A stretch of DNA of 64,000 nt from a virus (IMGVR_UViG_3300035497_000279:1-64000), one strand, 5' to 3'. Counted from the stretch's first letter, positions 16,161-60,650 are shown. Numbers and translations: made by a program. The notes: generated by a model from the letters alone, not told the origin.

Positions 16161-16227
16161 ATCAACAATGGGACTGGATGGCTCCAGTCCCTAAAAAGTA
16201 ATAAGAAGAATAGTAGTTGTGAGGTGA

Positions 16228-20140: not shown

Positions 20141-20272
20141 TTATAAAGTGTGTAACTTATTAATCGGTATCTTTCTCTGTCAAAATATATTCAGGTTGTC
20201 TTTATGACAACCTGGAATATTTTGTGCGATATTATTTTTTCTAATACATGCAATTAAGAAAGGTGATGAAAT

Positions 20273-25917: not shown

Positions 25918-26232
25918 ATGATACGCCAAAGCTTATTATCAGAGCTACCAGAATATGGAATCAAGTATGGAATATTTAAATACTCTATAGCTAGATTATT
26001 AGATTATCTTGATGATCATGGGCTGAACCATAACTATGAAAACAGATGGTTCAAATTCTGGCAGTTTGAAGCCTATAGCTATCTTCTTTATAAGCCATCA
26101 GGCATACTATTATCCTAGTTGACTATTGGAGAAGATAGCGATATCGTACAGTCAAATGTGATGTTGTACAAAGAAGAGTACAACAAAATCATAGAAACGT
26201 TTTTAGAAACGATATTGTGCGATAAAAACTGA
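25918..26232 (+). pseudogene. ORF interrupted by an in-frame TAG (26116-26118)
   Basis: Frame continues for 37 sense codons after the TAG to TGA 26230-26232, just before a terminator. Confidence 0.5.
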
Positions 26233-26292
26233 ATAGGAAGAATAACCCGTAGGCTATTATGCCTACGGGAAATCTTCTGTTTCATTTTTTTT

Positions 26293-55691: not shown

Positions 55692-55786
55692 AAATTACAG
55701 CTAGGCTATTATTGTCTAGCTGTATTATTTTTTGCTTAATCTAATTCCTTGGACAATCTATTAATGTAAGAAAGGAGGTCTTATAA

Positions 55787-57932: not shown

Positions 57933-59456
57933 ATGAATGATAATAAAATTCAAGCAATGATAGAATCGTTTAAATCATCCAATTTAACTGAATCACAGTC
58001 GGTATCAAAATATAAATTCCCAGGAATGTATTGTCCATACTTTACTCCTAATGAAGTTGCTTCTTATACAGGGTATTATTCAGATCATATAGATGAAGAA
58101 TGTGTTTCTTTATATGAGGAAGCTATCAATATAAATACACATCATACTCCAGATCATGCATTTCAAAAATCTTGGAATTCTAAGGTAGGGGAATTACATG
58201 ATAAACTTAAAAATACTGAAGATCAGGATGAAATAGATCAGATCAAACAAGACATGATTTCTTTAGGATGGAATCCAGAGATAGAATATAATACTGAGAA
58301 TCAGATTATGGCTAAAAAGAGATTTGAAAATATAATGAATGAGATGTATAATAGGGTATTTATTTCTAATATCACACCATTAGTTGAATCTTTTAATGAT
58401 GAATACATAGAGGAATCTACTTCATCTAAAAAGAAATTATTCCCTGTTCATATAGTTTTAGTTAGAGGTTGTTCACCATTATCTAAACTAATTACTAGTG
58501 TGACTCCTGGAGAGTTTTCTCATTCTGCTATATCTTTAGATAATAAACTTGAAAAGTTATATAGCTATAACTTTGATAATAAGTTTAATTTTGGTGGTGG
58601 ATTCTCATTAGAATCTATTAAAGAATATCCTAAAGAAAATAGATTAGCTGTATATACTGTATTTGTTACAGAGAATGCTTATAAGAAGATTTCAGATAAT
58701 ATTCAATATCTTCTTGGAGATATTAAAAATACAACGTATTCTATTGTAAATCTTATTACGTTTCCTATAAAGAATATTAATATAAATATGGGAGAAAATA
58801 TGATTTGCTCTCAATTTGTAGATTCTATTCTTAAGTTAGCAAATACAGATTTTACTAAAAAAGATTCATCTAAAGTTTCACCTAACGAATTGAATTTTGC
58901 TTTAAGTAATAATCCTAAAGCTTATAAGATATTTGATGGTGTTGTAAAAGACTTTGATGGGAATAAAACAAATAAGTTTATTAACAAGATTTCAAAAACA
59001 GCTACCTCAGCTAACGAATCATGTAAGTATGAGAATGCTATATTTGAAGCTCGCAAAATTCCTGTAGAAGTGAGTTCAGAGGGTGATGTACTACTTACAA
59101 ATCCATTTCCTGACTATAGTGAAGAATATTTTTCATCTCATAAGTTATTATTAAATTATGAGAAGACTGGTAATATTGATGGTATGAAATATGAATTGGC
59201 TAGACTTTATTATATGAATTATACATTAGAGAAGAAGCTATATCATAATAAACTTCTACCGAAGAAAAATGAGTATATAAAGACAAGAGCTAGAATACTT
59301 AATGATTTTAATAAATATCTTAAATATGTATTAGATAAAGATAAGAAGTTTAACTTTGGTGAATATTATGAGCAATCGCCTTTCTATGCTAATACAATCG
59401 AAGTTAAAGGATCCACTATAGGACAAGTAAAAGATATAATTAAGTATATATTATAA
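57933..59456 (+). CDS. Protein with a permuted papain-like (NlpC/P60, YiiX-type) domain
   Basis: FSHSAISLD precedes ICSQFVDSIL (His before Cys), followed by VSPNEL. Confidence 0.7.
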   Translation: MNDNKIQAMIESFKSSNLTESQSVSKYKFPGMYCPYFTPNEVASYTGYYSDHIDEECVSLYEEAININTHHTPDHAFQKSWNSKVGELHDKLKNTEDQDEIDQIKQDMISLGWNPEIEYNTENQIMAKKRFENIMNEMYNRVFISNITPLVESFNDEYIEESTSSKKKLFPVHIVLVRGCSPLSKLITSVTPGEFSHSAISLDNKLEKLYSYNFDNKFNFGGGFSLESIKEYPKENRLAVYTVFVTENAYKKISDNIQYLLGDIKNTTYSIVNLITFPIKNININMGENMICSQFVDSILKLANTDFTKKDSSKVSPNELNFALSNNPKAYKIFDGVVKDFDGNKTNKFINKISKTATSANESCKYENAIFEARKIPVEVSSEGDVLLTNPFPDYSEEYFSSHKLLLNYEKTGNIDGMKYELARLYYMNYTLEKKLYHNKLLPKKNEYIKTRARILNDFNKYLKYVLDKDKKFNFGEYYEQSPFYANTIEVKGSTIGQVKDIIKYIL

Positions 59457-59548
59457 AAACGAACAAGAATCCCATACTCTTTCGAGTATGGGACCATCTT
59501 GCGGAGGACTTTTACATGAAAAAAGTAACAATTTTAACCATAACTATT
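59456..59548 (-). ncRNA. Candidate late small RNA with an anti-SD/anti-start segment
   Basis: Minus-strand AACAtttaagTA (59548-59559), then TTTTTTCATGTAAAAGTCCTCCGC, then the hairpin 59471-59492 whose T-rich tract lies on the minus strand. Confidence 0.45.
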
Positions 59549-59614
59549 ACTTAAATGTTATCAAATAAAAACAGCATTATCATTTAAGTAATACAAGTCT
59601 AAGGAGGGAAACAA

Positions 59615-60547
59615 ATGATATTAACAGGTACAAAGTATTATAAGTACGATGAAGATCAACTTCAGGTATACCGTGTAGTTAATAATAAAGACGACAAGTA
59701 TACTCTGAAAGAATTATTTGGTAAAGGTAAAAGAATTGTAGTAGAAGAAGAGAAACTCAAATCTGTATATATAAAGTTAAACAATGATGCATTCTTAAAT
59801 ATGATGATTACTGCAAGCAATGGAGTAGCTAACGAAGATATTAAAGATGTATTTGCTTGTGTTAATAAAGTCGTAGATATGCAGTTAGATAAATTAGTAC
59901 CGTGCTTGATAGTAAGGCAAAATTGTATGTCTCAATCTAAGAATGCATTTAATACTGGGATAGAAACATACGTTGGGGATTGTTTTACCAGTAAGAATAT
60001 TCAATTAGATATGAGTATGGAAGAGGTAATGGAGTATGATGAGATTAGTTATACTTATTCTGTAGCATTGTATATTGATGATACGATTAATGATATATTT
60101 GATTCTATACCACCACATATACTGGAAGAATTTAATAAAGCATTAAAAGAAATCAAATCATCAAATAAAAGTTCTTTAGTTAAAGGATATTCTCTTACAT
60201 TACAAGATTTATTTAATGACAATAACTTTATGTATAATTATAGAGATATCTTTGGCGTTGTTCAATTAGATTTCCCTATATATTTAGGCAAGAGTTCATA
60301 TAATGAAGATGGGGATATTGTATTAAATGAAAAGCAGCATAAGAAGTTAGAAGATCGTATGTATCAATATATCAATATTGTTGCAGTTCTTAAATATGAT
60401 AGAGATATAGATGTATCTAAAATTGTAAAATATGCACATATAGTTGTATCTGACAGTAATGGAGATATATATCTTATTGCTTATCAAAAGATAGGTGATT
60501 ATAAAATTGATGATGATGTATTAAATGCATTCAATTTAGTTAAATAA
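59615..60547 (+). CDS. Hypothetical protein
   Basis: SD AAGGAGG; 310 aa. Confidence 0.75.
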   Translation: MILTGTKYYKYDEDQLQVYRVVNNKDDKYTLKELFGKGKRIVVEEEKLKSVYIKLNNDAFLNMMITASNGVANEDIKDVFACVNKVVDMQLDKLVPCLIVRQNCMSQSKNAFNTGIETYVGDCFTSKNIQLDMSMEEVMEYDEISYTYSVALYIDDTINDIFDSIPPHILEEFNKALKEIKSSNKSSLVKGYSLTLQDLFNDNNFMYNYRDIFGVVQLDFPIYLGKSSYNEDGDIVLNEKQHKKLEDRMYQYINIVAVLKYDRDIDVSKIVKYAHIVVSDSNGDIYLIAYQKIGDYKIDDDVLNAFNLVK

Positions 60548-60650
60548 GAAAATATAACAGAGTAAACAAAATTATAATCGCATAATATATTGGTGTATAA
60601 CGAGTATGACAGCTCGATATATAAAAAAATTTATTAAGGAGGAACTCGAT

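Follow-up and report, generated by a model that had tools for sequence, protein, structure and literature searches.

A candidate late cis-antisense RNA opposing the early leader of a conserved gene in an uncultured AR9-like jumbo phage

Jumbo phages of the AR9/PBS1 group rely on two RNA polymerases (RNAPs) of their own for their entire programme, and we know of no regulatory RNA defined for this group. The present work concerns a stretch of 64,000 nucleotides (nt), hereafter the window, which is the first 64 kb of the 235,843-bp virus contig IMGVR_UViG_3300035497_000279 from IMG/VR (31% G+C). Our subject within it is a predicted non-coding RNA of the minus strand, which would be transcribed between two plus-strand genes encoding proteins of 507 and 310 amino acids (aa). 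Small antisense RNAs are familiar in other phages: sar of P22 and OOP of lambda are non-coding RNAs of ~70-80 nt, each transcribed from a separate promoter on the opposite strand and ended by an intrinsic terminator, and they act in the secondary control of timing. The sar RNA overlaps the ribosome-binding site of ant. Both RNAs are listed in PMC5415839. In Bacillus phage AR9, antisense RNAs arise from seven late promoters, for the most part when infection is ending (Lavysh et al. 2017, PMC5312081); these RNAs were listed but not characterised, and a short, terminated and conserved unit facing an early promoter was not described there.

The locus studied here shares with the late antisense transcripts of AR9 the promoter grammar, the jumbo phage context and the presence of two multisubunit RNAPs, while its flanking genes have no sequence homology to AR9. 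As in the case of sar and OOP, the predicted RNA is short and non-coding, and it would have its own promoter and terminator and overlap a regulatory part of an mRNA. It differs from them in the phage lineage, in its presumed dependence on a promoter of the phage-encoded non-virion RNAP, and in its predicted target, which is the 5' leader of an early transcript and not the end of a coding region or a true gene start. It belongs to a kind of element that is already known, the cis-antisense phage RNA, and shows no sequence relationship with any RNA described so far.

Our best explanation, to which we assign a probability of about 0.5, is that the minus strand of this intergenic region encodes an RNA that is made late and acts in cis as an antisense to the early leader and the read-through RNA of the 310-aa gene. 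What we infer, namely the two transcripts with their timing and a regulatory effect, is drawn from the following elements and from their conservation:

59445-59461, plus strand: TATATATTAT-AAAAAC-G, predicted to be an early promoter of the virion-RNAP type, with G59461 as +1; the stop codon of the 507-aa gene (59454-59456) overlaps with it
59548-59559, minus strand: late (non-virion-RNAP type) promoter AACA-TTTAAG-TA, motif AACATTTAAGTA, with the predicted start at 59548 (T at -1 and A at +1, 59549-59548)
59455-59548, minus strand: predicted non-coding antisense RNA of ~90 nt, with its 5' end at 59548 and an approximate 3' end (~59455-59462); fold z = -4.7
59503-59507, minus strand: CU-rich motif CCUCC, similar to an anti-Shine-Dalgarno (anti-SD) sequence, immediately before the terminator; the plus strand reads GGAGG here
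59463-59502, minus strand: extended terminator hairpin of the predicted RNA, with the lower stem CAAGA/TCTTG; -24.6 kcal/mol, z = -6.7
59471-59492, minus strand: core hairpin CCCATACTC-TTTC-GAGTATGGG, inside the extended hairpin
59450-59462, minus strand: U-rich tract UUCGUUUUUAUAAU that immediately follows the hairpin in the RNA; the transcript is predicted to end here, at the plus-strand early start or slightly past it
59615-60547, plus strand: 310-aa gene of unknown function, the presumed regulated gene, served by the early leader

In the proposed mechanism, the virion RNAP would start a plus-strand mRNA at G59461, with a leader of 154 nt running into the 310-aa gene; this early start is probable because the full match to the early promoter is conserved. 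From the promoter that faces it, read from 59559 to 59548, the non-virion RNAP would start the minus-strand RNA, and the strong hairpin with its U-tract (59502-59450) would stop transcription right at the early start site. The resulting RNA of ~90 nt would be a perfect complement of the initial ~88 nt of the early leader. It would also cover late read-through RNA from the upstream operon (714-aa and 507-aa genes, with a late-type promoter GACA-N6-TA at 55751-55762), because no plus-strand U-tract follows the last gene of that operon. Late in infection, pairing with these plus-strand RNAs would switch off or reshape the expression of the 310-aa gene, possibly through duplex-dependent cleavage or decay or through masking of the SD-like element of the leader, and the converging polymerases may add transcriptional interference. 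A convergent late promoter within an early leader is a single case in the genome.

According to its genes, the source of the window is an uncultured AR9-like jumbo (giant) phage with two multisubunit RNAP sets. Two beta-like and two beta'-like RNAP genes are present, and the major capsid protein is remotely related (~22% identity) to the capsids of AR9-like jumbo phages of Staphylococcus and Listeria. Searches with the flanking genes, as DNA and as protein (tblastn), gave no match among 50,697 phage records; the capsid alone gave remote matches. The early promoter consensus of AR9 is AAATATATATTAT-N6-G (PMC5312081) and the late one is AACA-N6-T(A/G) (PMC5312081, PMC5449584), where changes at -11 to -8, including -10, abolish late transcription (PMC5449584). 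Judging by the motif counts, this promoter grammar holds in the present phage too, as TATATATTAT-N6-G for early promoters and AACA-N6-TA for late ones. The sequence TATATATTAT occurs 17 times in the 236-kb genome and is followed by G after N6 in 8 of the 17, and seven of these eight copies sit at most 200 nt upstream of a co-oriented gene. Upstream of genes and in the sense orientation, AACA-N6-TA was observed 32-37 times against 5.5-7.6 expected (5-6 fold enrichment). This enrichment is specific for strand, being higher in sense than in antisense, and for spacing, since N5 and N7 are not enriched; the extended late consensus of this phage is [AG]ACAT-N5-TAA. GACA-N6-TA and AACT-N6-TA are likewise enriched upstream of genes, and the late consensus is thus seemingly looser at -11 and -8 than that of AR9.

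The bare motif AACA-N6-TA is weak, with 192 matches on both strands of the genome, mostly intragenic, and for this reason the flanking positions were scored as well. A flank-inclusive matrix was built from 36 sense promoters (leave-one-out) and compared with 218 intragenic core matches. The minus-strand site, whose AACA lies at 59559-59556 and corresponds to -11 to -8, scores 8.2 bits, above all 36 sense promoters and all 218 intragenic matches, and it is the best-scoring late promoter of the genome.

To follow the locus in relatives, contigs with homologues of the 310-aa gene were collected, giving nine distinct intergenic versions, the window counted among them. A close clade comprises the window, L008, L010 and L006 (51-56% protein identity), and a distant one L011, L014, L012, L022 and L023 (~40-44%). 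The promoter was compared by anchored alignments; MAFFT across both clades misaligned it. The AACA of the minus-strand promoter is invariant in 9/9 versions, and T(A/G) follows it after exactly six bases in 8/9, the spacer of L006 being 7 nt. The spacers themselves vary (TTTAAG, TCTAGG, TATAAG, TTATAG, TTATTG, TTATTA and ACAATA). On the plus strand of the same intergenic region, no late-promoter match was found in any of the nine versions. As a control, the next intergenic region has a plus-strand late promoter conserved in several relatives, and a minus-strand late promoter in none of the 12 sequences compared.

The hairpin is also found in 9/9 relatives, lower stem included, with -23 to -25.5 kcal/mol, and compensatory changes affect five of the ten core pairs. 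On the minus strand of the window it has the features of an intrinsic terminator, that is, a stable stem-loop containing G+C and an adjoining U-tract. In the 16 nt beyond the core hairpin there are 11 T on the minus-strand side and 3 on the plus side. The minus-side count is 9-11 in eight of the nine versions, L023 having a weak U-tract; on the plus side, the close clade has 2-3 T and the distant clade 5-9. The run of A between the early start site and the hairpin, which supplies the U-tract of the minus-strand RNA, is conserved. When the hairpin was used as a search pattern, the metagenome contigs gave four matches, all of them unrelated bacterial terminators that were discarded. In the viral contigs, the close-clade pattern recovered again the L006 contig only, and the distant-clade pattern one true relative, identical to the L012 type. 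Five further terminator-like hairpins of the phage genome, T-rich on the minus side alone under a loose criterion, sit between plus-strand genes (16170-16191, 102533-102564, 104107-104132, 122668-122695 and 128331-128355); no late promoter matches them.

The early promoter, which the initial annotation overlooked, is retained in the window, L008, L010, L011, L014 and L022; L006 has A at +1, and the copy of L023 is weak. It is not conserved merely as coding sequence, because in L012 and L022 it lies past the stop codon, outside the coding sequence. It should be noted that the C-terminal codons of the 507-aa gene (K-Y-I-L-stop, 59440-59456) coincide with this promoter, and the 'YIL' end conserved among the relatives may owe its sequence to the promoter rather than to the protein.

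The length of the predicted RNA, from start site to hairpin end, is 67-91 nt across the relatives, with the U-tract extra. No conserved open reading frame (ORF) was found on the minus strand in the window and its relatives, just unrelated frames of 5-9 codons lacking an SD sequence. A search of the window against Rfam gave nothing at the gathering score, and the best weak match was Atu_C9 with 17.3 bits, the gathering score being 40. A motif of the type CCTCC, CTTCC, CCTTC or CCTCT occupies the CU-rich position in 8/9 relatives, compared with ~10% of random intergenic windows of 45 nt. Selection may act here on the RNA, as an anti-SD, or on the leader, as an SD-like ribosome-binding or stabiliser element. 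In view of these data we consider it likely that a minus-strand transcript exists, and the conservation of the layout of promoter, RNA and terminator suggests that it is probably a real antisense regulator of the familiar phage kind.

Six further short units that combine a late promoter with a terminator were observed in the genome, at 20145-20216 (+), 26193-26269 (+), 80515-80578 (-), 156143-156222 (-), 174162-174208 (+) and 230601-230684 (+). None contains an ORF of at least 50 aa between promoter and terminator, several have CU-rich runs, and they could be small RNAs or tiny genes. A supposed second copy of the antisense unit at 122,779 was rejected, as it has TTCA instead of AACA and overlaps a ribosome-binding site.

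Around the late promoter, three other features require mention:

59516-59554, plus strand: 12-codon ORF MKKVTILTITIT, with ATG at 59516 and GGAGG at 59503-59507; probably not a gene
59545-59557 / 59581-59593: 13-bp inverted repeat formed by two divergent promoter-like boxes, partly kept in the relatives
59579-59590, plus strand: box ATCATTTAAGTA, lying 25 nt before the ATG of the 310-aa gene; close to a late promoter, but the base at -10 is non-consensus

An ATG at SD spacing exists in two of the nine relatives, the window and L008, where both ORFs have 12 codons and unrelated peptides. L010 has ATA in place of ATG, L006 reads GGAAG and its frame is interrupted, and the ORF is absent from the five distant relatives. 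The calculated mean length of an open frame at 31% GC is ~13 codons, so that 12 codons is about the chance expectation, and the ORF is probably due to chance. With respect to the plus-strand box, the sequence A(C/T)CATTTAA(G/A)TAA is retained in the window, L006, L008 and L010, 25-27 nt before the start codon. Among upstream sites there is no enrichment of AT and AC at -11/-10, and the box departs from the consensus at -10; it may be a promoter that is weak or recognised in a different way. In the distant clade the proximal box is different, TAT-AGAACT-AA, and early-like. The distance between the late box and the proximal box varies among the relatives (22-31 nt), and we take the inverted repeat for a back-to-back pair of promoter-like boxes rather than a structural element of RNA or DNA.

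All the elements that the initial annotation had placed in this region were present in the sequence: the hairpin with its T-rich tract on the minus strand, the minus-strand late promoter, the 13-bp inverted repeat, the GGAGG, the ATG and the 12-codon ORF. Its warning that the promoter motif is short and may arise by chance was well taken for the bare core. As for the antisense small RNA that it proposed, the data support a minus-strand unit of late-type promoter, ~90 nt of non-coding sequence and terminator, with the promoter core, the hairpin and the minus-side U-tract conserved, while the target that it had in mind, an mRNA whose product begins MKKVT, is unsupported. It had also offered a cis-antisense RNA to a 12-aa peptide as an alternative. 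The cis reading is indeed the better one, because the early promoter turns the complementary plus strand into the leader of the predicted early mRNA for the 310-aa gene; the target would be this leader and not a peptide gene.

Several observations weigh against a late antisense RNA. The core late motif is short and common in the genome, and L006 has the 7-nt spacer. The late enzyme of AR9 requires uracil-containing DNA (PMC5449584), and the DNA of the present phage is possibly without uracil. The richness in T on the minus side of the window is partly just the complement of the AT-rich early promoter. The hairpins of L011 and L022 are T-rich on the plus side also, and because of this they may equally terminate the upstream operon. 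Finally, both the U-tract and the early promoter of L023 are weak.

Some of these points would fit a situation, which we regard as rather unlikely, where there is no functional minus-strand RNA and every element serves the plus strand. The hairpin would then end or process the late operon mRNA or structure the early leader, a role consistent with the plus-side T-rich tracts of L011 and L022; against this, the hairpin of most relatives is set back from the extreme 5' end of the leader, and the conserved A-run gives the minus-strand RNA its U-tract. The SD-like motif would be a ribosome-binding stabiliser or the start of an upstream ORF. In all the relatives it matches parts of the ideal SD AGAAAGGAGG, a start codon stands at the right spacing in the window and L008, and SD-type mRNA stabilisers are known in Bacillus, such as the STAB-SD of cry3A. 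The TA-N6-TGTT box would be kept for some different reason, for instance as a protein-binding site or as part of the plus-strand promoter region, and a core motif so frequent by chance makes this conceivable. Nevertheless, the conserved positions are exactly those of the late consensus while the spacer varies, the site has the top flank score of the genome, and its distance from the proximal promoter is not fixed. A more particular use of the plus strand, a type I toxin-antitoxin-like pair whose antisense RNA would block a small hydrophobic peptide, seems to us very improbable. The ORFs of the window, L008 and L010 start K-rich and continue with hydrophobic residues, the residues VSS are common to L008 and L010 with third-position differences, and both the SD and the start codon would lie within the stretch covered by the antisense RNA. 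Against this stand the shortness of the frame, of chance length in the window and L008, its missing standard start in L010, its interruption in L006, its absence from the five distant relatives, and the lack of any peptide conservation.

Two other explanations keep the minus-strand transcript and change its role. It is unlikely, in our opinion, that the act of transcription is what matters and the RNA is a by-product, the late promoter serving to occlude or dislodge polymerases or to block read-through from upstream. This strong promoter would fire at the early promoter, 88 bp off, with the proximal promoter of the 310-aa gene back-to-back at 40-49 bp, and the sole role of the terminator would be to keep antisense transcription out of the 507-aa gene. 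Interference between convergent promoters is known from coliphage 186. Here, the convergent early and late starts and the back-to-back boxes are conserved while the RNA sequence between them is variable, and read-through is likely in the four close relatives, which have no plus-strand U-tract after the hairpin. Interference, however, does not need a CU-rich motif conserved inside the RNA, and insulation could be had more simply from an ordinary plus-strand terminator. In the other explanation, which follows the main idea of the initial annotation, the RNA would act in trans, its unpaired CCUCC, which resembles the anti-SD tail of 16S rRNA, blocking the SD regions of host or phage mRNAs; we hold this to be quite unlikely. 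C-rich seeds that target SD sequences are typical of the Firmicute small RNAs RoxS, FsrA and RsaE, and the predicted RNA has, like these, an unpaired C/U-rich motif upstream of the terminator hairpin that could pair with an SD. Such a motif stands in the same place in eight of the nine relatives although the surrounding sequence is unalignable between the clades, and the C-to-U variants CUUCC and CCUUC should still pair with GGAGG through G-U wobble. Unlike RoxS, FsrA and RsaE, it has no trans target that could be found and no Rfam match, and its motif may mirror the plus-strand SD-like element, whose complement would explain it equally well. The best pairing with a phage gene start had -27.3 kcal/mol, within the range of the best values of shuffled controls (-20.6 to -29.8), which does not bear out a trans silencing of an mRNA beginning MKKVT. 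The phage has no second GGAGG..ATGAAAAAAGTAAC site, and in a collection of 185,579 genomes the pattern GGAGG-N6-9-ATGAAAAAAGTAACAAT, the target search that the initial annotation had suggested, had 29 unrelated matches scattered over unrelated phyla. Its suggested scan of relatives for promoter, anti-SD and terminator found the unit kept but not the complementarity to the start codon: past the SD, the pairing with ATG-AAA-AAA-GTA is not conserved, and of the ribosome-binding site and start codon proposed as target only the CU-rich/SD-like motif is retained. A stretch of 15-nt identity at 234,094 was also considered as a trans target and rejected, since it is same-sense and lies in the end of a plus-strand gene.

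If the cis-antisense reading is true, two phage-encoded polymerases would oppose each other at one locus, in a layout conserved across an uncultured phage group. An RNA of the late polymerase directed against a leader of the early one would show the temporal separation of the two programmes, and the promoter-terminator cassette would be a compact and testable one for these unusual enzymes. It would add to known biology and not establish a new principle, because cis-antisense phage RNAs have long been known. A wider idea, which we put forward tentatively and consider doubtful, is that AR9-like jumbo phages possess a conserved RNA-based switch from early to late expression, in which an antisense RNA of ~90 nt made by the non-virion RNAP converges on an early promoter of the virion RNAP and silences the leader of a conserved early gene, that of the protein with an N-terminal Tudor-like barrel. 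On this idea, the RNA would be the first regulatory one to be defined in the AR9-like group, and the two phage polymerases would be in direct cross-talk. In a bolder variant of it, the 16S-like CCUCC tail would also act in trans on Shine-Dalgarno sites.

Regarding the product of the presumed target gene, the 310-aa protein has 20 homologues with 38-56% identity, no Pfam or PHROG family, and no Foldseek match in the PDB at E <= 0.001. Its structural model is confident (pLDDT 89), and VIA-align matched only residues 1-57, as a Tudor/SH3-like barrel (Z ~7). This N-terminal barrel resembles, among others, the C-terminal Tudor domain of PcrA/UvrD and the RNAP-interacting domain of CarD; at Z ~7, the likeness may reflect no more than a common fold.

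The gene that follows, encoding 294 aa, has a plus-strand late promoter conserved in the region 60548-60605 and in the orthologous regions. In L011, L012 and L022, AACT takes the place of AACA at this promoter. In L008, L015 and L016, an early-type TATATATTAT-N6-G comes directly after the late promoter, and such a pair of late and early promoters suggests continuous expression of the 294-aa gene.

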